A DNA stretch of 40,875 nt from Escherichia phage vB_EcoP-R1: sequence record OQ703102.1. One strand, given 5' to 3'. The notes under the pieces are model-generated. The model searched no databases and was not told where the DNA came from. It saw only the letters and a list, made by a program, of their open reading frames with translations. The first letter of the stretch is position 1; each line of letters opens with the position of its first letter. The position numbers and the translations under genes are program-made. Below, piece by piece: positions 1-40,875 of this stretch.

Positions 1-394
1 GACGGGTCAGAATGTCGCGATACAGCGCCTGACGGTGCGTTTCGTCATGGGTCGCCAGCACTTCGCCGATCTCTTTATCAATCAGCGGCTTGTCGGCTAA
101 ACCTTGCTGTGCCTGGAAGTCAGCGTGCGACGGTACGCGCATTGAACTCAGGAAGGCGTGTGGATCGTATGGCGCGCCCCAGGTGCGGTGGAAAATCATG
201 CCAAAACGACCGTCGCGCTGACGAGCATAGATACTGCTCTCTTCTTCGCCAATCAGCGAGACATCTGCGCCAATCTGGCGCATATCAGCCTGAATGATTT
301 CCGCCATCGATTTGCTTAACGCATCGGTGCCGATGAACGACAGTTCAATGCGCAGCGGCTGACCATTTTTCTCGCGGATGTCTTTGCCAGCAGG
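1..394 (-). CDS. nikA: Internal fragment of a periplasmic solute-binding protein (SBP family 5, nickel-binding NikA-like); truncated by the window edge and by the junction with phage DNA
   Basis: Minus-strand frame open across 1-394, translating ...PAGKDIREKNGQPLRIELSFIGTDALSK...RDGRFGMIFHRTWGAPYDPHAFLSSMRVPSHADFQAQQGLADKPLIDKEIGEVLATHDETHRQALYRDILTR, which matches my recollection of E. coli NikA; GC-rich enterobacterial codon usage; no start or stop inside the window. The six-frame track misses it because it runs off the window. Confidence 0.55.
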
Positions 395-461
395 ATCCAT
401 ACGGATTGGGCGTACAGCAAGTAATAAACTTTATCTTTCAATTGAATAGGAGAATTATCAT

Positions 462-1511
462 ATGGCAAACGTTCCGGGTCAGAAATTAGGTACAGACCAA
501 GGTAAAGGCAAATCTGGTTCCGACGCTCTGGCGTTGTTCCTGAAGGTCTTTGCTGGCGAAGTCCTGACCGCATTCACTCGCCGCTCTGTAACTGCTGACA
601 AGCATATTGTCCGTACAATTCAGAACGGTAAGTCTGCTCAGTTCCCGGTCATGGGTCGCACCTCTGGTGTGTATCTGGCTCCGGGTGAGCGACTGTCCGA
701 TAAGCGCAAAGGTATCAAACATACCGAGAAAGTAATTACCATTGATGGTCTGCTGACTGCCGATGTGATGATTTTCGACATTGAAGACGCGATGAACCAC
801 TATGACGTGGCTGGTGAGTATTCCAACCAGTTGGGTGAAGCTCTGGCTATCGCTGCTGATGGTGCGGTTCTGGCTGAAACGGCTCTCCTGTGTAACCTCC
901 CAGCTGCATCCAACGAGAACATCGCGGGTCTGGGCACTGCGTCCGTACTGGAAGTTGGTAAGAAAGCTGACCTCAACACCCCGGCTAAACTGGGCGAAGC
1001 AATCATCGGTCAACTGACCATCGCTCGTGCGAAGCTGACCTCCAACTACGTTCCTGCTGGCGACCGTTATTTCTATACAACGCCGGACAACTACTCTGCA
1101 ATCCTCGCGGCTCTGATGCCGAACGCTGCTAACTATGCTGCGCTGATTGATCCAGAGACTGGTAACATCCGTAACGTGATGGGCTTCGTTGTTGTTGAAG
1201 TTCCGCATCTGGTACAGGGTGGCGCTGGTGAGACCCGTGGTGCCGATGGTATCTCTATCGCTTCCGGCCAGAAACACGCATTCCCAGCAACTGCTACTGG
1301 CGACGTTAAAGTTGCTATGGATAACGTTGTGGGTCTGTTCTCTCACCGTTCTGCTGTGGGTACTGTGAAGCTGCGTGACTTGGCGCTGGAACGTGACCGT
1401 GACGTCGATGCTCAGGGCGACCTGATTGTCGGTAAATACGCTATGGGTCACGGTGGTCTGCGTCCTGAAGCGGCGGGTGCGCTGGTTTTCACAGCAGCGT
1501 CAGCGGTCTAA
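462..1511 (+). CDS. 10A: Major capsid protein (T7 gp10A homolog)
   Basis: 349 aa; MANVPGQKLGTDQGKGK...LALFLKVFAGEVLTAF...KHTEKVITIDGLLTADV...DIEDAMNHYDV...KYAMGHGGLRPEAAG closely parallels T7 gp10A; RBS AGGAG 8-10 nt upstream. Confidence 0.95.
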   Translation: MANVPGQKLGTDQGKGKSGSDALALFLKVFAGEVLTAFTRRSVTADKHIVRTIQNGKSAQFPVMGRTSGVYLAPGERLSDKRKGIKHTEKVITIDGLLTADVMIFDIEDAMNHYDVAGEYSNQLGEALAIAADGAVLAETALLCNLPAASNENIAGLGTASVLEVGKKADLNTPAKLGEAIIGQLTIARAKLTSNYVPAGDRYFYTTPDNYSAILAALMPNAANYAALIDPETGNIRNVMGFVVVEVPHLVQGGAGETRGADGISIASGQKHAFPATATGDVKVAMDNVVGLFSHRSAVGTVKLRDLALERDRDVDAQGDLIVGKYAMGHGGLRPEAAGALVFTAASAV

Positions 1512-4882: not shown

Positions 4883-4905
4883 CTTAACTATCACTATAGG
4901 GACTA
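4883..4905 (+). promoter_or_regulatory. Phage RNAP promoter (phi13-like)
   Basis: CCTTAACTATCACTATAGGGACT; predicted +1 G at 4900; same 23-bp family recurs 10 times in the window. Confidence 0.8.
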
Positions 4906-12226: not shown

Positions 12227-14758
12227 ATGTCCACGATTACACAATTCCCTTCAGGAAACACTCAGTACAGGATTGAGTTCGACTACCTAGCCAGAACGTT
12301 TGTTGTTGTTACGCTGGTGAATAGCTCTAACCCTACCCTGAACCGTGTACTGGAAGTTGGTCGAGATTACCGATTCCTTAACCCAACGATGATTGAGATG
12401 TTGGTTGACCAATCAGGTTTCGACATCGTTCGTATTCACCGTCAGACTGGAACTGACTTAGTGGTAGACTTCAGGAATGGCTCAGTGTTGACAGCTAGTG
12501 ACCTGACCAATTCAGAGCTTCAGGCTATCCATATTGCAGAAGAAGGTCGAGACCAAACGGTTGACTTAGCGAAGGAATATGCCGATGCTGCTGGTAGCTC
12601 TGCTGGCAACGCTAAGGATAGCGAGGACGAAGCACGCCGAATCGCTGCGAGTATCAGGGAAGCTGGTCTAATTGGCTATATTACCCGTCGCTCCTTCGAG
12701 AAAGGCTACAACGTTACAACATGGAGCGAGGTCCTGCTATGGGAAGAGGATGGTGATTATTACCGCTGGGATGGTACGCTTCCAAAGAACGTTCCTGCTG
12801 GTTCAACTCCTGAAACTTCCGGTGGGATTGGATTAGGTTCGTGGGTTAGTGTTGGTGATGCTGCTTTAAGAAGTCAGATTTCAAACCCGGAAGGGGCAAT
12901 ACTCTACCCGGAATTGCAGATGGCAAGATGGCGTGATGATGGTGATGTTCGAGGCTGGGGTGCTAAAGGGGATGGTGTAACAGATAGTACGGAGAATATA
13001 GCTGCTTCACTAAATTCTCAAAAAGCTGTCGTAGCATCAGAAGGTGTATTCTCTAGTTCTGGTATTAATAGTAATTACTGTAACTTAGACGGCAGAGGCA
13101 GTGGTGTACTAAGTCACCGTTCCAGTACAGGTAACTACTTAGTATTTAACAATCCACGTACAGGTCGCTTAAGTAATATTACGGTAGAAAGTAATAAGGC
13201 GACGGATACCACTCAGGGACAGCAGGTATCTCTTGCTGGTGGCAGTGATGTTACGGTAAGTGACGTTAACTTCTCAAACGTTAAAGGTACTGGTTTCAGT
13301 TTAATCGCATACCCTAATGATGCGCCACCTGATGGGCTTATGATTAAAGGCATTCGAGGTAGCTATTCCGGCTATGCCACTAATAAGGCGGCTGGATGCG
13401 TACTTGCTGACTCCTCAGTTAACTCCCTCATAGATAACGTCATTGCTAAGAACTACCCTCAGTTCGGAGCTGTAGAGCTGAAAGGTACAGCCAGTTACAA
13501 CATAGTTAGTAATGTTATAGGGACAGATTGCCAGCATGTAACCTACAACGGTACTGAAGGGTCAATAGCTCCTTCTAATAACCTTATCAAGGGGGTAGTT
13601 GCTAATAATCCTAAGTATGCAGCGGTTGTTGCAGGCAAAGGTAGTACGAACTTAATATCAGACGTGCTCGTAGATTACTCAACCTCTGATGCTAGGCAGG
13701 CTCATGGTGCTACAGTAGAAGGTTCTGATAACGTCATAAATAATGTGCTTATGACAGGGTGTGATGGTACTAACTCTTTAGGGCAAGCTCAAACTGCTAC
13801 AATTGCTCGCTTTATAGATACAGCTAATAACAACTATGCGTCTGTATTTCCTAGCTACAGTGCTACAGGTGTTATTACTTTCGAATCAGGTTCTACCCGT
13901 AACTTCGTAGAGGTAAAGCATCCGGGAAGGAGAAACGACCTTCTCAGTGCTACTGGTACTATTAGCGGTGCAGATACTATTGACGGCACTAATAATAGCA
14001 ACGTAGTGCACGCCCCTGCATTAGGGCAGTACATAGGCAGTATGTCCGGTAGGTTCGAATGGCGGATTAAGTCCATGTCACTTCCATCAGGGGTTCTTAC
14101 CTCTGCGGATAAGTACAGGATGCTTGCCGATGAGGCTGTGTCATTAGCTGTAGGCGGAGGTACTTCTTCTCAAGTACGCCTGTTCACTTCTGACGGCACT
14201 TATCGGAATATATCACTTACTAGGGGTAACGTGCGTCTTCCTACCAGTAGCACAGGTTATTTGCAGTTAGGTTCTAATGCAATGACACCAGATAGTACTA
14301 ATACATACGCATTAGGTTCCGCAAGTCGAGCATGGTCTGGCGGTTTTACTCAATCAGCATTCACTGTTGTCTCAGATGCTAGGGATAAAACAGAGCCTCT
14401 TAATATCTCAGATGCTTTACTGGATGCTTGGTCTGAAGTTGACTTTGTGCAGTTTCAGTACTTGGACCGAATTGAGGAGAAGGGTGCAGACTCAGCTAGA
14501 TGGCACTTCGGCATCATCGCTCAGCGAGCTAAGGAGGCCTTCGAACGTCACGGTATAGATGCACATCGCTATGGCTTCCTGTGCTTCGACAGTTGGGATG
14601 ATGTATACGAGGAAGATGCCAATGGCTCTCGTAAACTGATTACACCAGCAGGTTCCCGCTACGGTATTCGTTACGAGGAAGTACTGATATTAGAGGCTGC
14701 GTTGATGCGGCGTACTATTAAGCGTATGCAGGAAGCATTAGCTGTTATGTCTAAGTGA
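12227..14758 (+). CDS. 17: Tailspike/tail fiber: T7 gp17-like N-terminal adaptor, pectate-lyase-type beta-helix (putative polysaccharide depolymerase), C-terminal intramolecular chaperone (peptidase S74-like)
   Basis: 843 aa. N-terminal about 150 aa resembles the gp17 tail-attachment domain; GAKGDGVTD motif at aa 245-253 (nt 12959-12985) is the hallmark of pectate-lyase-3 type tailspikes; C-terminal about 128 aa (from SDARDK at nt 14372; ...WHFGIIAQRAKEAF...) resembles the auto-cleaved chaperone domain of endosialidase-type tailspikes. Confidence 0.85.
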   Translation: MSTITQFPSGNTQYRIEFDYLARTFVVVTLVNSSNPTLNRVLEVGRDYRFLNPTMIEMLVDQSGFDIVRIHRQTGTDLVVDFRNGSVLTASDLTNSELQAIHIAEEGRDQTVDLAKEYADAAGSSAGNAKDSEDEARRIAASIREAGLIGYITRRSFEKGYNVTTWSEVLLWEEDGDYYRWDGTLPKNVPAGSTPETSGGIGLGSWVSVGDAALRSQISNPEGAILYPELQMARWRDDGDVRGWGAKGDGVTDSTENIAASLNSQKAVVASEGVFSSSGINSNYCNLDGRGSGVLSHRSSTGNYLVFNNPRTGRLSNITVESNKATDTTQGQQVSLAGGSDVTVSDVNFSNVKGTGFSLIAYPNDAPPDGLMIKGIRGSYSGYATNKAAGCVLADSSVNSLIDNVIAKNYPQFGAVELKGTASYNIVSNVIGTDCQHVTYNGTEGSIAPSNNLIKGVVANNPKYAAVVAGKGSTNLISDVLVDYSTSDARQAHGATVEGSDNVINNVLMTGCDGTNSLGQAQTATIARFIDTANNNYASVFPSYSATGVITFESGSTRNFVEVKHPGRRNDLLSATGTISGADTIDGTNNSNVVHAPALGQYIGSMSGRFEWRIKSMSLPSGVLTSADKYRMLADEAVSLAVGGGTSSQVRLFTSDGTYRNISLTRGNVRLPTSSTGYLQLGSNAMTPDSTNTYALGSASRAWSGGFTQSAFTVVSDARDKTEPLNISDALLDAWSEVDFVQFQYLDRIEEKGADSARWHFGIIAQRAKEAFERHGIDAHRYGFLCFDSWDDVYEEDANGSRKLITPAGSRYGIRYEEVLILEAALMRRTIKRMQEALAVMSK

Positions 14759-15317: not shown

Positions 15318-15321
15318 GTGT

Positions 15322-15366
15322 TAGACTCAAGGTCATTACTATGTGTAGTGGCCTTTATGGTTAACA
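15322..15366 (+). promoter_or_regulatory. RNase III-type processing hairpin (R18.5-like)
   Basis: TTAGACTCAAGGTCAT...GTGGCCTTTATGGTTAA; one of three near-identical copies (also 24159 and 31550); resembles the conserved GTGGCCTTTATGATT element of T7 RNase III sites. Confidence 0.5.
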
Positions 15367-15418
15367 CTAACTAGTGGAGGAGACTCTACGTGAAATCTGA
15401 TAAACCGGGAGGGCAACT

Positions 15419-17778: not shown

Positions 17779-17958
17779 ACCCCCGGTTACTTATAGTATT
17801 ACTGTAGTGAATATACATATGCAGACTTTATGCAAGACCTTAGGAGGCAGACTCCGAGTTCTTACCTAAGGCTTGCACCGATGGAAGGAGGGTGATATTA
17901 ATCATAATCCCTCCAATACAGATAGTCACCGACCATAGATACAGGAGGTATGTAGCAT

Positions 17959-18117
17959 ATGGCAAAGACCAAAGCTGTACTTAAAGCTCTGGCGACCAAT
18001 CGAGCTACATACAGGTTTCTTGCTGCTGTTCTACTTGCTGCTGGCGTTACTGCTGGAAGTAAGTGGGTCGGGTGGGTCGAGACTCTCGTATGTTCTCTGG
18101 TGTCTCAGTGTAATTAA
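17959..18117 (+). CDS. Small hydrophobic protein (gp19.5 position)
   Basis: 52 aa MAKTKAVLKALATNRATYRFLAAVLLAAGVTAGSKWVGWVETLVCSLVSQCN with RBS AGGAGGT 8 nt upstream; below the track size cutoff. Confidence 0.4.
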   Translation: MAKTKAVLKALATNRATYRFLAAVLLAAGVTAGSKWVGWVETLVCSLVSQCN

Positions 18118-18150
18118 CGCAATCATGGTAACGATTCATGAGCGGAAGAC

Positions 18151-18193
18151 CTAAGGTCAGTACGTGGATAAAGACTCACTCTACTGACCTTAG
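18151..18193 (+). repeat. Perfect 12-bp inverted repeat (CTAAGGTCAGTA / TACTGACCTTAG) forming a hairpin in the right-end unique region
   Basis: Read directly from the sequence; arms separated by 19 nt. Confidence 0.6.
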
Positions 18194-18355
18194 CTACTGT
18201 AGTCAAGGACTTTAGGTAACACCTTAATAGAAGCTCACCTAGGGTCATCCTACTTATTGGTCTATCCTAGTGTCGCCTGACCTACGGTCCTTGACCTACA
18301 GTAGCTGCCACCTACGGTCACTCGATGAGTTTTGGACCAAAAGTTTGAGACCACA

Positions 18356-19121: not shown

Positions 19122-19376
19122 ATGGACACTATGAAACACTTAAGCACAATCACTAATCACAATGAAGTATTCGTGAACACTAAAGGTTATGCGTGGATTC
19201 AGCTTAAAGAGATGACAGGAGCGCGTCACCGTGTGGTAGTGCGCAGGGTATCAAGCAAGCCGTTCAGCAACTACAGTATAGACACTGTGCGTATAGACAA
19301 CGATACCTACCTGATAGACTCACAGATAACCGTGAGTCCTACAGCGAGCGCCTCAGCTCCTTATTTCGCTAACTGA
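19122..19376 (+). CDS. Hypothetical early protein upstream of ocr
   Basis: 84 aa ORF (alternative start ATG 19131); bracketed by two copies of the leader repeat; no recognisable motif. Confidence 0.5.
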   Translation: MDTMKHLSTITNHNEVFVNTKGYAWIQLKEMTGARHRVVVRRVSSKPFSNYSIDTVRIDNDTYLIDSQITVSPTASASAPYFAN

Positions 19377-19381
19377 GAGTG

Positions 19382-19430
19382 ATTAACTACAGGTCGTTAG
19401 ACTCATAGCGGCCTGACTGATAGTCACTAA
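19382..19430 (+). repeat. Early-leader element copy 2, immediately upstream of ocr
   Basis: Direct repeat of 19061-19115. Confidence 0.5.
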
Positions 19431-19463
19431 CATACATATAAACAACTTTGAGAGGATATAACT

Positions 19464-19967
19464 ATGGAACGCAACGCTAACGCATACTATGAGCTGCTGG
19501 CTGCAACCGTTGAGGCATTTATCGAGCGTATTCAGTACGACCACCTGACTAAAGATGACGACTACAGCGATGCGCTGCATGAGGTCGTAGACGGTCAGGT
19601 CCCGCTCTATTACCACGAGATTTTCACGGTGATGGCTGCTGATGGTATAGACCACGAGTTCGAAGACTCTGGGCTGATGCCTGAAACCAAGGACGTAACG
19701 CGTATCCTACAAGCTCGCATCTATGAGGCACTTTATAACGACGTGTCTAATAGCTTGGATGTAGTCTGGTTTGAGGATGAAGAGGCAGACGAAGAGGATG
19801 AATATTGGGTAGTTGACGCTAAAACAGGCGCAATAATTGTGCAATCTGTAGCTCTTGAGGTCGCTACTGCATGTGCCGAGGTCAACTATGCGGCAGGTCG
19901 CCACCTGAAGGTGGAAGACATCAATGATAACGTAGTGTTCGACCCTGCGGCTGAGGACTGCGAGTGA
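19464..19967 (+). CDS. 0.3: Ocr-like anti-restriction DNA mimic (gp0.3 homolog) with a C-terminal extension of about 50 aa
   Basis: 167 aa; ...[54 protein letters not shown]... parallels T7 Ocr (...[46 protein letters not shown]...); acidic run [12 protein letters not shown], then extra non-acidic sequence absent from T7 Ocr (117 aa). Confidence 0.85.
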
Positions 19968-24138: not shown

Positions 24139-24161
24139 CCTAAACTATCACTATAGGATTA
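24139..24161 (+). promoter_or_regulatory. Phage RNAP promoter (phi1.1-like)
   Basis: ACCTAAACTATCACTATAGGATT; +1 G at 24156. Confidence 0.8.
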
Positions 24162-24206
24162 GACTCAAGGTCATGACTCAAAGTCGTGGCCTTCATGATT
24201 AACCCT
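24159..24206 (+). promoter_or_regulatory. RNase III-type processing hairpin (R1.1-like)
   Basis: TTAGACTCAAGGTCATGACTCAAAGTCGTGGCCTTCATGATTAACC; near-identical to the copies at 15322 and 31550. Confidence 0.5.
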
Positions 24207-24231
24207 AACTCATTCAATCAGGAGCTACACC

Positions 24232-27235: not shown

Positions 27236-27253
27236 ACTATCACTGTAGGACAG
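27231..27253 (+). promoter_or_regulatory. Phage RNAP promoter variant (phi2.5-like), G at -3
   Basis: CCTAAACTATCACTGTAGGACAG; one mismatch to the family core (TATA to TGTA). Confidence 0.6.
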
Positions 27254-31614: not shown

Positions 31615-32046
31615 ATGAGGACTTGTAGTAGATGTGGCTCTACAAAGGAGTCCACTGAGTTCAGGAAGACAAATGGGTGGTGCATATCCTGTGTTCGTGA
31701 GGATAATAGGTCGCGATATCATCGAAACAAAGGTACAGAGGCCGGTGAGGCGCATCGCCTATCTGCCCGTAAGTCTTGGCTTAAGAAAGCCTATGGTCTC
31801 ACACTTGAGGAATATGACACTATGTTCGATAGTCAAAAGGGCAGATGCGCTATATGCTCAGACATTATCTTCAAGCATGGGTCTATTGAGAGTAAGAATA
31901 ATGTAGCCCACGTTGACCATTGCCATGACTCAGGTATTGTTAGGGGATTGCTATGTGGTACATGTAATAGCGCACTTGGTAAGTTCGGTGACAAGGTAGC
32001 CGTGCTTAGGGCTGCTATAACGTACTTGGAGAAATATAATGTTTAA
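31615..32046 (+). CDS. HNH endonuclease, endonuclease VII-type (putative homing endonuclease)
   Basis: 143 aa; Cys-rich N-terminus (CSRCGS...CISC) plus CAICSD...HVDHCHDSGIVRGLLCGTCNSALG, the typical endonuclease-VII/HNH zinc-binding core. Confidence 0.8.
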   Translation: MRTCSRCGSTKESTEFRKTNGWCISCVREDNRSRYHRNKGTEAGEAHRLSARKSWLKKAYGLTLEEYDTMFDSQKGRCAICSDIIFKHGSIESKNNVAHVDHCHDSGIVRGLLCGTCNSALGKFGDKVAVLRAAITYLEKYNV

Positions 32047-34806: not shown

Positions 34807-35012
34807 GTGAATACTTACGGGTCCTAGCGGCCCTTAAGTCCTGCCCGAAGACCTTCCAGTCTAACTATGTGCGCAACAACGCTGCACTTGTGGCTGAGGC
34901 TGCGAGTCGTGGACATCTAAGCTGCCTGTCTATGGATGGGCGTAACAACGGTGCGTGGGAAATTACCGCTGCTGGCACCAAGTTCCTGAACCAACACGGA
35001 GGCTGTCTATGA
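34803..35012 (+). CDS. 5.7: gp5.7-position protein
   Basis: 69 aa, same length as T7 gp5.7; ...KSCPKTFQSNYVRNNAALVAEAASRGH...; assigned by position and size. Confidence 0.6.
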   Translation: MSEYLRVLAALKSCPKTFQSNYVRNNAALVAEAASRGHLSCLSMDGRNNGAWEITAAGTKFLNQHGGCL

Positions 35013-35458
35013 AGATACCTGAAAGTCTGAAAGAGCTGGTCCTTGACATGGGTGAGTGCGAGAAGGAGCACCGCAAGTACGCTGAGTTCTACGCATCTTG
35101 GTCATACACCTTGACAGAGAAGGACGTTGAGTCATACACCGAGTCTCCCGCTGAGGCTTATGAGTGGCGTCCATTCATCGGACTGACCATCGTAGCTAGC
35201 GGTATGTGGGATGACAGATACGGTTCAGAGGTAAACGACTGGGACGTGTGCCGCCAAGTTGAGAAGGAGACTGAGATGTCTTCAAACTTCTGGAACCTGA
35301 TGTCACACCTAAACTCAGAGGACAACGACAAGGCCCATGAGTTCGCCAACAAATGGCTGAAGCCTGAGGTGACTCTCGAACGTATAGAGGAGCCGAAAGT
35401 GCCCTTGATGCCATATGTAGTCGCTATGGCTACAGGAGGTCTGGACGATGGGTGCTGA
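35009..35458 (+). CDS. Acidic hypothetical protein at the gene 5.9 position (much longer than T7 gp5.9)
   Basis: 149 aa from ATG 35009 (overlaps the 5.7 stop as ATGA); Glu/Asp-rich; T7 gp5.9 is 52 aa. Confidence 0.5.
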   Translation: MKIPESLKELVLDMGECEKEHRKYAEFYASWSYTLTEKDVESYTESPAEAYEWRPFIGLTIVASGMWDDRYGSEVNDWDVCRQVEKETEMSSNFWNLMSHLNSEDNDKAHEFANKWLKPEVTLERIEEPKVPLMPYVVAMATGGLDDGC

Positions 35459-36317
35459 GAAGAAGATAGCTCTTGTTCTTGATGGCGATTACCTAGTATT
35501 CTCTTCTATGGCTGCTGCCGAGGACGAGACAGACTGGGGTGATGACATCTGGACCCTTATCTGCGACCATGAGAAGGCTCGCCGTATCCTTGAGAACACC
35601 ATCGCTGAAATCGTTAAGAAGCGCAAGGCGTGGAAAGACGCTAAGATTGTGATGTGCTTCACCGACGATTACAACTGGCGTAAGGACGTACTTCCTACCT
35701 ATAAGGCTAACCGTAAGGGTTCTCGCAAGCCTGTAGGTTACAAGAAGTTCGTAGCCGAAGTGATGGCTGACCCACGGTTCAACAGCTTCCTGCGTCCCAC
35801 GCTTGAGGGTGATGACTGTATGGGTATCATCGGGACCAGACCTCAGATTGTCGGATGTGACCATGCGGTTCTGGTGTCCTGTGATAAGGACTTCAAGACC
35901 ATACCGAACTGTGAGTTCTTCTGGTTGACCACTGGTGAAATCCTGAGTCATACGACTGCTGAGGCAGACTACTGGCACATGGAGCAGACCATCAAGGGCG
36001 ATACTACAGATGGCTACGGCGGGATTCCGGGGATGGGTGAGGACACCACTCGTGCGTTCCTTGACGAGCCGTACTACTTCGTTCAGGAGAGCCGTGAGCT
36101 TAAGACTGGTAAGAACAAAGGCCAGATTAAGACTGAGTGGAAGAAGTATCCGAAGCGTGAAGACATGACGCTGTGGGACTGCATGGTTACACTGGCTGCT
36201 AAGGCTGGCATGACCGAGGAGGAACTTCTGGTCCAAGCTCAGGTCGCTCGTATTTGTCGAGCCTCCGACTACGACCCTAAGTCCAAGGAGGTCATCCTAT
36301 GGACACCATCCATGTAA
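35448..36317 (+). CDS. 6: 5-prime to 3-prime exonuclease (gp6 homolog)
   Basis: 289 aa; ...WRKDVLPTYKANRK...KPVGY..F......LEGDD.MG.I......VSCDKDFKTIPNCEFFW.TTG.IL...DYWH...QTIKGD.TDGY.GI.G...KTGKNKGQ...TLWDC....AKAGMTEE parallel T7 gp6. Confidence 0.92.
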   Translation: MGAEKKIALVLDGDYLVFSSMAAAEDETDWGDDIWTLICDHEKARRILENTIAEIVKKRKAWKDAKIVMCFTDDYNWRKDVLPTYKANRKGSRKPVGYKKFVAEVMADPRFNSFLRPTLEGDDCMGIIGTRPQIVGCDHAVLVSCDKDFKTIPNCEFFWLTTGEILSHTTAEADYWHMEQTIKGDTTDGYGGIPGMGEDTTRAFLDEPYYFVQESRELKTGKNKGQIKTEWKKYPKREDMTLWDCMVTLAAKAGMTEEELLVQAQVARICRASDYDPKSKEVILWTPSM

Positions 36318-36391
36318 TTTACTGGGTCGGACTTCTGGCCCTTTACTGCATGTACAAGTGGTTCGGGTCGAACAACCGCCCTAAACACTGA
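36299..36391 (+). CDS. Putative small hydrophobic peptide (gene 6.3 position)
   Basis: 30 aa MDTIHVIYWVGLLALYCMYKWFGSNNRPKH; RBS AAGGAGG 7 nt upstream; overlaps the 3-prime end of gene 6. Confidence 0.3.
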   Translation: MDTIHVIYWVGLLALYCMYKWFGSNNRPKH

Positions 36392-37448: not shown

Positions 37449-37689
37449 ATCAATCAGTAAGGCCTTCAAGAAAGTGGTGAAAAGTACGTTAGGGACCGTT
37501 GGTCTTGGCTCTGATGACGCGCCTAAGGTTGTTGAGGCTAAGACCCCAGCAGCACCAGTGGAAGTACCGAACGACAAAGTGGAGGATGTGGATACTGAAG
37601 CAACCGCATCTGATGAGAAGAAAGTGAAGCGTTCCGGTAAGCGTAGCCTTCAGGTCTCTCGCACCTCTGGTGGCGGTATTTCTATATGA
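37441..37689 (+). CDS. 7.3: gp7.3-like tail/virion protein
   Basis: 82 aa, Lys/Ala/Val-rich, ends ...RSLQVSRTSGGGISI (T7 gp7.3 ends similarly as I recall); GTG start. Confidence 0.65.
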   Translation: MGKSISKAFKKVVKSTLGTVGLGSDDAPKVVEAKTPAAPVEVPNDKVEDVDTEATASDEKKVKRSGKRSLQVSRTSGGGISI

Positions 37690-38102
37690 CAGGGTGCATC
37701 GAGTGGAAGTGGGCCAAATCCTCAGCAGGATACGGGCAGAAGCGTATAGACGGTAAGTTAGTGTATATGCACCGACTCGCTTACGCCGATGCACATGGGC
37801 CAATACCAGACGGAATGCTCGTCCGTCATAAGTGTGATAATCCAGCATGTTTTAACGTAAACCACTTAGAGTTAGGAACTCAGCGTGATAACATGCAGGA
37901 CGCCTCAAAGCGTGGTCGAGTCAATAAAACCAAAATGGCTAGAGGTGAGGACCAAGGGTTATCGGTTTTAACAGAAGACCTTGTTCGAGAAATCCGCAAG
38001 TCAACAGTAGGTTGTACAACACTGGCTCGTGAGCTGGGCGTTAGCAAGTCTACAGTTTTGCGGGTTCGCCAAGGTAAAACATGGAGGCACGTAGATGGCT
38101 GA
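37686..38102 (+). CDS. HNH endonuclease with C-terminal helix-turn-helix (gene 7.7 position)
   Basis: 138 aa; ...GYGQKRIDGKLVYMHRLAYADAHGPIPDGMLVRHKCDNPACFNVNHLELGTQRDN... HNH core; C-terminal ...TLARELGVSKSTVLRVRQGKTW is HTH-like. Confidence 0.75.
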   Translation: MTGCIEWKWAKSSAGYGQKRIDGKLVYMHRLAYADAHGPIPDGMLVRHKCDNPACFNVNHLELGTQRDNMQDASKRGRVNKTKMARGEDQGLSVLTEDLVREIRKSTVGCTTLARELGVSKSTVLRVRQGKTWRHVDG

Positions 38103-39663
38103 ACGTGAAGGATTTGCCGCTGAAGGCGCGAAGTCAGTTTATGATAGGCTGAAGAACGGACGACAACCTTACGAGACCAGAGCACAGAACTGCGCTGCCG
38201 TGACCATACCGTCGCTATTTCCGAAGGAATCTGATAACTCCTCGACGGAATATTCAACTCCGTGGCAAGCTGTAGGTGCTCGCTGTTTGAACAACTTGGC
38301 TGCAAAGCTGATGTTGGCATTATTCCCTCAGTCACCGTGGATGCGACTGACAGTCTCCGAATATGAGGCCAAGACCTTGAGTCAGGACTCAGAGGCTGCT
38401 GCTCGTGTTGACGAAGGGCTGGCTATGGTCGAGCGTGTGTTGATGGCCTACATGGAGACCAACAGTTTCCGTGTGCCATTGTTCGAAGCTCTGAAGCAGC
38501 TTATCGTCTCCGGTAACTGTCTGCTTTACATTCCAGAGCCTGAACAGGGTACTTACAGTCCTATGCGAATGTACCGCTTAGTGTCATACGTTGTTCAACG
38601 TGATGCTTTCGGTAATATCTTGCAGATTGTGACTCTCGACAAGGTAGCGTTTAGTGCTCTACCGGAAGACGTGAAGTCACAACTCAACGCAGACGACTAT
38701 GAGCCTGACACAGAGCTGGAAGTTTATACGCACATCTACCGTCAAGACGACGAGTATCTACGTTATGAGGAAGTGGAAGGCATTGAGGTAGCAGGGACCG
38801 ATGGTTCCTACCCACTGACTGCATGTCCATACATCCCGGTACGAATGGTTCGACTGGATGGTGAAGACTATGGTCGTTCTTACTGCGAGGAGTATCTGGG
38901 TGACCTGAACTCGCTGGAGACGATTACAGAAGCTATCACCAAAATGGCTAAGGTAGCCTCCAAGGTGGTGGGCCTCGTTAACCCGAACGGTATCACGCAA
39001 CCTCGTCGGCTGAACAAGGCGGCTACAGGTGAGTTCGTTGCCGGTCGCGTTGAGGACATCAACTTCCTGCAACTGACTAAGGGTCAGGACTTTACGATTG
39101 CCAAGTCGGTGGCTGACGCTATCGAGCAACGTTTAGGCTGGGCCTTCCTTCTTAATAGTGCTGTTCAGCGCAACGCCGAGCGAGTCACTGCTGAAGAGAT
39201 TCGTTATGTTGCTGGCGAACTGGAGGCGACCTTAGGTGGCGTGTACTCAGTACAATCCCAAGAGCTTCAGTTACCTATCGTCCGTGTGCTGATGAACCAA
39301 CTTCAGTCTGCTGGCATGATTCCTGACCTTCCGAAAGAAGCGGTAGAGCCTACTGTCTCCACTGGTCTGGAAGCGTTAGGTCGTGGTCAGGACTTGGAGA
39401 AGCTAACTCAGGCGGTTAACATGATGACTGGTCTTCAGCCGCTATCTCAGGACCCGGACATCAACTTGCCGACCCTTAAGCTACGACTCCTGAACGCTCT
39501 GGGTATCGACACCGCCGGCCTTCTGCTGACTCAGGACGAGAAGATGCAACGTATTGCTGAACAATCCGCTCAAGGAGCTGTGGTCAACGGTGCGTCTGCT
39601 GCTGGTGCTAACATGGGTGCTGCTGTAGGTCAGGGAGCTGGTGAGGACATGGCTCAAGCCTAA
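38095..39663 (+). CDS. 8: Portal / head-to-tail connector protein (gp8 homolog)
   Basis: 522 aa (T7 gp8 536 aa); conserved position between 7.7 and scaffold. Confidence 0.93.
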   Translation: MAEREGFAAEGAKSVYDRLKNGRQPYETRAQNCAAVTIPSLFPKESDNSSTEYSTPWQAVGARCLNNLAAKLMLALFPQSPWMRLTVSEYEAKTLSQDSEAAARVDEGLAMVERVLMAYMETNSFRVPLFEALKQLIVSGNCLLYIPEPEQGTYSPMRMYRLVSYVVQRDAFGNILQIVTLDKVAFSALPEDVKSQLNADDYEPDTELEVYTHIYRQDDEYLRYEEVEGIEVAGTDGSYPLTACPYIPVRMVRLDGEDYGRSYCEEYLGDLNSLETITEAITKMAKVASKVVGLVNPNGITQPRRLNKAATGEFVAGRVEDINFLQLTKGQDFTIAKSVADAIEQRLGWAFLLNSAVQRNAERVTAEEIRYVAGELEATLGGVYSVQSQELQLPIVRVLMNQLQSAGMIPDLPKEAVEPTVSTGLEALGRGQDLEKLTQAVNMMTGLQPLSQDPDINLPTLKLRLLNALGIDTAGLLLTQDEKMQRIAEQSAQGAVVNGASAAGANMGAAVGQGAGEDMAQA

Positions 39664-39681
39664 ACTATCACTATAGGAACT
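39659..39681 (+). promoter_or_regulatory. Phage RNAP promoter (phi9-like)
   Basis: CCTAAACTATCACTATAGGAACT overlapping the portal stop; +1 G at 39676. Confidence 0.8.
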
Positions 39682-39760
39682 TAGACAAGATTCACAAAGC
39701 ATTAGGCCGGGTGAGACTCCCGGTCGGTTCCTATCATCAACTTAAAAGGAGAATGACTCA

Positions 39761-40605
39761 ATGTCTCAATCAGTTTATGCCGAGTTCGGCGTTAGCTCTA
39801 ATGCAATCACTGGTTCCGTTGAGGACCTGAACGAACACCAGAAGTCTATGCTTGAACAGGACGTAGCTGTTCGTGATGGCGACGACGCTATTACTTTCAA
39901 GCAACTGGAAGCCGAAAACGAAGAGGCGACCGAAGAAGACGAGAACGTCGAAGAGACTGAAGGTGAAGAAGACCACGAGTCCGATGACGAAGAGTCTGAG
40001 ACCGATGGTGAGCAGCCTGAGTTCATCGAACTGGGTGATGCACCAAAAGAGCTGACCGAAAGTGTCACCGCTCTGGATGAAAACGAAGCTGCATTCGACG
40101 ACATGGTGTCTTCTGCTGTAGAAGCTGGCAAGGTCACTGCTGATGAAATTACCGCTATCAAGGCTGAATACGCCAAGGACGGTAAGCTGTCTGACGCATC
40201 CTACGCTAAGTTGCAGGAAGCAGGTTACACCAAGCGTTTCGTAGATTCGTTTGTCCGTGGTCAGGAAGCTCTTGCTGAACAGTATGCTGCTGGTGTGGTT
40301 CGCTACGCTGGTGGTGCTGAACAGTTTAATCGCATCCTGTCACACCTTGAGTCCAACGACCCGTCAACTCGTGAAGCACTGGAAGCTGCTATCGTTCGTA
40401 AGGACATTGCGACTACCAAAGCTCTGCTGAATCTGGCTGGCAAGACTCTGGGTAAAGCTGTAGGTGTTAAACCTCAGCGAACCATCACCACTCAGGCTAA
40501 ACCTGTGGTCGCACCTAAGGCTCCTCAGACCGAAGCATTCAGCTCCAAGGCTGACATGATTAAGGCTATGAGTGACCCGCGATACCTGCGTGACGCTAAG
40601 TACAC
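39761..40605 (+). CDS. 9: Scaffolding protein (gp9 homolog), 3-prime truncated and fused in-frame to non-phage sequence
   Basis: MSQSVYAEFGVSSNAITGSVEDL...VRDGDDAI..., acidic EEDE-rich region, ...FVRGQEALAEQY...AMSDPRY parallel T7 gp9; no stop codon, and after about 40605 the translation no longer looks like gp9. Confidence 0.85.
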
Positions 40606-40843
40606 GGTGTTTAGTTTTCAGGCTGGCGCACTGGCAGGTGTGCAAATTGTTTCACAAGCTGCAAAACGCAGTGCCGATGGCGAGCTGCTGTTAGCGACCC
40701 GTAACCGCTTGAGTAGTGTTGTTCCACTGTCGCCAGACGCCTGGCAAATGTTGAGCGCGCCGTTGCGCCAGCCGGGCATTGTGGCTTTGCGGGAATATTT
40801 ACGCCAGCGTCCCCCCGCCTGCATACGACCACTCAACCAGGTC
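40606..40843 (+). other. Unidentified non-phage, GC-rich coding-like fragment (probable bacterial chromosomal DNA) joined in-frame to gene 9
   Basis: Open + frame ...LAGVQIVSQAAKRSADGELLLATRNRLSSVVPLSPDAWQMLSAPLRQPGIVALREYLRQRP... with GC content clearly higher than the phage; I cannot assign it from sequence alone. Confidence 0.3.
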
Positions 40844-40875
40844 AGATCGGAAGAGCGTCGTGTAGGGAAAGAGTG
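40844..40875 (+). other. Illumina TruSeq adapter sequence (AGATCGGAAGAGCGTCGTGTAGGGAAAGAGTG)
   Basis: Exact 32-nt match to the standard Illumina adapter read-through sequence at the extreme 3-prime end of the window. Confidence 0.95.

Follow-up and report, generated by a model that had tools for sequence, protein, structure and literature searches.

Fragments of two Escherichia coli genes and an Illumina adapter at the ends of the Escherichia phage vB_EcoP-R1 contig point to a technical chimera beside the capsid gene

The window analyzed here is the whole 40,875-nt stretch of sequence record OQ703102.1, assigned to Escherichia phage vB_EcoP-R1, and it represents a complete genome of a K1F-like phage (Kayfunavirus, Autographiviridae). 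The window was collinear with the genomes of Escherichia phage ZG49 and Kayfunavirus PDP21P1, with identities of 90–97%, and was circularly permuted, opening just before gene 10 and closing within the gene 9 region. From the left, gene 10 was followed by the tail, internal-core, and terminase genes, the physical genome ends, the early and replication genes, gene 8, and gene 9. Gene 10 (462–1511, plus strand) was intact in the list of open reading frames and was predicted to encode a major capsid protein of 349 amino acid residues (PHROG 267, major head protein, E = 4.5e-101), and its DNA was 96% identical to Kayfunavirus capsid genes. The exact capsid protein had no entry in the assembly index. 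Gene 8, the portal gene, was located at 38095–39663. The two ends of the linear ZG49 record (1 to approximately 401 and approximately 39891 to 40291) both mapped to 17865–18265 on the plus strand of the window, indicating that the terminal repeat was collapsed into a single copy and that the assembly was circularized through it. Because of this circularization, the ends of the contig are ends of the assembly and not of the genome. No direct repeat (terminal overlap) was found between the two contig ends.

Several stretches of the window differed from the related genomes. A small ORF encoding an endonuclease VII-like protein (31615–32046) was located between the primase/helicase and DNA polymerase genes, and another small ORF, encoding an HNH endonuclease (37686–38102), was located just 5′ of the portal gene. 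Both stretches were absent from ZG49 and PDP21P1, and these ORFs are probably mobile homing-endonuclease insertions. In the early region, the stretch of 19137–19966 did not align to ZG49 or PDP21P1; it contained an ORF for an Ocr-like anti-restriction protein (19464–19967; PHROG 2568, E = 3e-53). About 710 nt of the tail-spike gene of the window (13566–14276) matched positions 34916–36335 of the ZG49 record (NC_047777.1) twice, in tandem, and two adjacent CDSs are annotated there as "tail spike". The tandem match reflects a duplication or an assembly error in the ZG49 record rather than in the window.

The left end of the window (1–394, minus strand) was occupied by DNA foreign to the phage, namely, an internal fragment of E. 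coli nikA, encoding the nickel ABC transporter substrate-binding protein. The reverse strand of this region contained a single open frame of 131 codons without a start or stop codon, and the remaining two frames were full of stops. The region was identical to nikA of E. coli SK1144 at 393 of 394 positions (99.7%), and the deduced peptide aligned to positions 330–460 of the 501-position NikA profile TIGR02294 with an E-value of 5.9e-56. These results bear out the preliminary description of this DNA, which reported a minus-strand NikA-like frame without a start or stop running to about position 394. The nikA piece was matched by all of the 5,426 complete E. coli genomes searched, and no nikA-like DNA was found among 50,697 phage records. 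One odd base was present in the piece, at position 35, and no E. coli genome matched it perfectly.

At the left join, nikA and the phage sequence did not overlap and were separated by one orphan base, A at position 395. At this position, nikA has C and the phage relatives have G, as judged by comparison with nikA and ZG49 and by an alignment of five relatives. Phage homology began at position 396 among the matches listed. The CAGG at the end of the host side, previously taken as a mimic of the 3′ end of the promoter, is ordinary nikA sequence. Searches of IMG/VR, JGI metagenomes, and GTDB genomes yielded no copy of the left junction. Restriction cloning through GGATCC, a BamHI site at 393–398, was considered and rejected. 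Native nikA reads CAGGCAGC and the native phage sequence reads CAGTCCAT, both without GATC at this position. Since neither parent has GATC at the junction, the join and the orphan A together created the GGATCC by chance.

Downstream of the join, 66 nt of phage leader (396–461, plus strand) preceded the capsid ATG at 462. In the five-relative alignment, this stretch corresponded to positions +43 to +108 of the gene 10 leader, and it contained an AGGAG ribosome-binding site. The A+T content of 395–461 was 67%, in agreement with the AT-rich phage leader of about 67 nt noted earlier. The promoter consensus of the window is CTAAACTATCACTATAGG. A pattern search identified eight exact copies of its core, CACTATAGG, at positions 4892, 12168, 17766, 20829, 24149, 25820, 36454, and 39669, and a variant with one mismatch was present at 27241. 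The consensus was not found in 1–461, upstream of gene 10. An intact phage promoter, CTAAACTATCACTATAGGAAC, was located 5′ of gene 9 (39660–39682, plus strand) and provides a model for the missing gene 10 promoter. Separately, a 52-nt direct repeat with 83% identity was observed at 15321–15372 and 24159–24210 (TTAGACTCAAGGTCAT…GGCCTT.ATG.TTAAC.CTAACT), and its copy at 24159–24210 starts directly 3′ of the promoter at 24149. The repeat is possibly a conserved leader or an RNase III-type processing hairpin.

The window was compared with five relatives, ZG49, PDP21P1, ST0223, SR04, and IME177. All five carried the same 98–99 bp, located between the points matching 40606 and 396 of the window. This segment consisted of the last 12 codons and the stop codon of gene 9, the promoter GACTAAACTATCACTATAGGGAGACC, and positions +1 to +42 of the leader, and the sequence of the relatives spanning the gap reads …ACACGATGGAAGTTCGCGC…CTATCACTATAGGGAGACC…CTTCAGTCCATACGG. 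The promoter was located 108 nt upstream of the capsid ATG in each of the five, and 57 nt upstream and 42 nt downstream of its +1 are missing from the window. The +1 to +42 part of the leader folds as a 5′ stem-loop, GGGAGACC…GGTTTCCC, which resembles that of the T7 gene 10 leader. The absence of the gene 10 promoter, as reported in the preliminary description, was confirmed, and this promoter is present in all five relatives. The break had been placed at the 3′ end of this promoter; the junction in fact lies 42 nt downstream of the promoter +1, and the phage sequence resumes at +43 of 108. Overall, the open frame, its nikA identity, and the missing promoter stood, and the position of the break and the promoter mimicry did not.

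Two further accounts of the missing segment were examined and rejected. The 98–99 bp were not misplaced, as they occurred nowhere else in the window, where only the promoter core recurs, over at most 23 nt. A strong hairpin as the origin of a coverage gap was unconvincing, since the predicted DNA fold of the missing region and its flanks had an energy of −22.9 kcal/mol over 171 nt.

At the right end of the window, gene 9, encoding the scaffolding/head assembly protein, was truncated. It occupied 39761–40606 on the plus strand and contained 282 of 294 codons without a stop codon (PHROG 1052, head assembly, positions 2–281 of the 293-position profile). The last 12 codons, which encode MEVRAKVAASSL in the 294-codon gene 9 of ZG49, were missing together with the stop codon, and phage homology stopped at 40606–40609. 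The adjoining 40607–40843 (plus strand) was an internal fragment of about 236 nt from E. coli yehQ, encoding a SWIM zinc-finger protein. The match was clean from 40608, and 40607 was ambiguous. Its identity was 98.8% in the best-matching strains, and no E. coli genome matched perfectly, with an odd base near 40642. The phage sequence thus extended to 40606 and yehQ started from about 40608, with an orphan G at 40607 and at most 2–3 nt of shared sequence. By chance, the yehQ piece is in frame with gene 9, and a spurious open frame runs to the contig end. The right junction was not found in IMG/VR. A-tailing as a source of the orphan bases suits the A at 395 and not the G at 40607, and we make no claim for it.

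The contig terminated in 32 nt of adapter read-through (40844–40875, plus strand) that exactly matched the Illumina TruSeq read-2 adapter, AGATCGGAAGAGCGTCGTGTAGGGAAAGAGTG, which occurred only once in the window. The yehQ identity broke exactly where the adapter starts, at 40844. The same sequence is given as the library "adapter 2" in PMC7303419. It was also found with 100% identity in six unrelated phage records, derived from Bifidobacterium, Chryseobacterium, Klebsiella, Enterococcus, and Escherichia phages and an uncultured phage (PQ571273.1, KT254133.1, OU509537.1, MW202825.1, OR360270.1, and PQ462667.1; 32–33 nt). In at least two of the six, it was located within a few dozen nucleotides of the record end. 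Since only a technical sequence would recur in this manner across unrelated phages, the string is regarded as technical, and its occurrence in these six records suggests untrimmed contamination in GenBank. Neither the yehQ fragment nor the adapter at the right end had been mentioned in the preliminary description.

The chromosomal origins of the two host pieces were compared. The chromosome of E. coli SK1144 carries the nikA piece at 0.272 Mb on one strand and the yehQ piece at 1.761 Mb on the other. Because the loci are 1.5 Mb apart and oppositely oriented, the window carries two host pieces and not one chromosomal segment. Several strains (SK1144, SA186, 4/4, AR_0089, and AR_0086) were at the top of both the nikA and the yehQ match lists, which fits weakly with propagation on one host.

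The presence of nikA DNA next to the capsid gene can almost certainly be attributed to an artifact of sequencing or assembly. That its join to gene 10 is technical and not a feature of the phage, as suspected earlier, is strongly supported by the second host fragment, the adapter, and the missing 98–99 bp. The host joins very probably represent chimeric library molecules that extended two dead ends of a short-read phage assembly, and the ligation chimera offered as one option in the preliminary description fits best. At each join, the source genome changed abruptly; the two sides shared 0–3 nt and met at one orphan base. Such joins are typical of ligation or template-switch chimeras. The foreign pieces came from unlinked host loci, and the contig included a technical sequence at 40844–40875. 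The single odd bases in both host pieces may hint at single-read, low-quality support.

According to this explanation, the assembler would have circularized the genome through the terminal repeat, leaving a single dead end in the region of the gene 10 promoter. Both sides would then have been lengthened by molecules joining a phage fragment to trace host E. coli DNA, on the left to nikA and on the right to yehQ. Blunt ends ligated to each other before the adapters were added, or template switching during PCR, may have produced such molecules, and we infer that the joins were made in library preparation rather than in the assembly graph. The position of the adapter directly after yehQ indicates that the yehQ-bearing fragment was shorter than the read, which would have run on into the Illumina adapter. 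The real phage would hold about 98–99 bp at this site, comprising the end and stop codon of gene 9, a phi10-type promoter, and leader positions +1 to +42, and it probably carries the sequence found in the relatives.

Some observations count against an artifact. Assemblers normally favor a well-covered true path over rare chimeric reads, so the true 98-bp path must somehow have been lost or disrupted. Possible causes are a heterogeneous population at phi10, a local drop in coverage, and simplification by the assembler. In the missing segment itself, no repeat exceeds 23 nt and the hairpin is only moderate. In addition, the 394-nt nikA extension is longer than one Illumina read and would thus require two or more overlapping reads, for instance the two mates from one fragment. 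That both dead ends took up host DNA and not phage–phage chimeras is a mild coincidence.

The joins could alternatively have been created in the assembly graph, by a walk from phage to host through non-chimeric reads that share a k-mer, such as that of the repeated promoter. The genome contains about ten copies of the promoter core, which share up to 22–23 nt, and the gap is roughly centered on the promoter (57 nt upstream and 42 nt downstream of +1). However, host and phage have at most 2–3 nt in common at either junction, far below a usable k, and the junctions lie 40–57 nt away from the promoter and not inside it. All other promoters were assembled through unbroken, and the terminal adapter shows that a single physical fragment ended there. 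The false join at a repeated k-mer put forward in the preliminary description is accordingly not borne out, since no sequence is shared at the nikA junction and the repeated promoter core falls inside the missing segment rather than at the joins. We regard an origin in the assembly graph as very unlikely.

Still less likely is that the joins were formed in vivo, during infection, by illegitimate recombination linking pieces of degraded host DNA to phage DNA broken close to the very strong gene 10 promoter, and that these phage–host hybrids were then sequenced. In favor of this, host DNA is fragmented by T7-group phages, both junctions flank one promoter within about 100 bp, and joins with little or no homology are equally expected from end-joining. 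The same low likelihood is given to phi10 as a hot spot for such hybrids, arising from breakage of replicating phage DNA, for example by transcription–replication conflict, and subsequent end-joining. A hybrid genome of this kind would lack the C-terminus of gene 9 and the gene 10 promoter, and its two host pieces would have come from unlinked loci. The yehQ piece is only about 236 bp long and is directly followed by the adapter. As mentioned above, neither junction turned up in the collections scanned for it (IMG/VR for both; JGI metagenomes and GTDB for the left one only), and a dead-ended assembly with random chimeric reads explains the co-location of the junctions without a hot spot.

Integration of the phage into, or its physical linkage to, the E. 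coli chromosome, with both host flanks included in the contig, would account for a complete phage genome with host DNA at both ends, but it has a very low probability, given that the flanks are 1.5 Mb apart and oppositely oriented in the reference, that the host DNA breaks off after only 394 nt on one side and about 236 nt on the other, that the adapter follows yehQ, and that Kayfunavirus members belong to the lytic phages of the T7 group, no integrase ORF having been noted in the window. Nor do the host pieces resemble a phage-borne host gene (a moron or a transduced segment), as each of them is terminal in the contig. No support for a phage-borne nikA was obtained from relatives or independent assemblies, in the 50,697 phage records and the junction scans.

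A chimeric library origin thus remains the preferred explanation, and the value of the result lies in quality control. As it stands, the sequence misleads annotation in four ways: it presents a false "nikA-like" phage gene, a false gene 9–YehQ fusion protein, a seemingly promoter-less capsid gene, and an apparent linear genome with termini at genes 9 and 10. Positions 1–395 and 40607–40875 should be trimmed, the 98–99 bp gap should be closed, and the genome should be re-oriented to the true terminal repeat near 17.9–18.3 kb before the sequence is put to biological use. The absence of a conserved promoter beside foreign DNA at the edge of a contig usefully signals such assembly junk.

The locus can be compared with three known systems. 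Compared with E. coli nikA, the window keeps only an internal quarter of the gene, without the start, signal peptide, and stop, and the piece is cut off from nikB, flanked instead by phage DNA and the contig end. A functional nikA gene, with a complete frame including start, signal peptide, and stop beside nikBCDE, is not present. With the gene 9–phi10–gene 10 arrangement of the T7 group, the window shares the gene order and the ribosome-binding site of gene 10, and its 66-nt leader remnant is 96–100% conserved with K1F-like relatives. In contrast to the five K1F-like relatives, it lacks the promoter, leader positions +1 to +42 with the 5′ stem-loop, and the 12 codons at the 3′ end of gene 9. 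The underlying biology is the standard T7-group arrangement, as in all relatives. Similar to known contig-end artifacts in Illumina phage assemblies, the window shows an abrupt switch from target to host DNA without homology and a terminal adapter; it departs from them in nothing substantive, its one peculiarity being host fragments at both ends of one contig with the loss of 98–99 bp of true sequence between them. The join is a textbook contig-end artifact, combining host contamination, a chimeric fragment, and an untrimmed adapter, and not a new feature.
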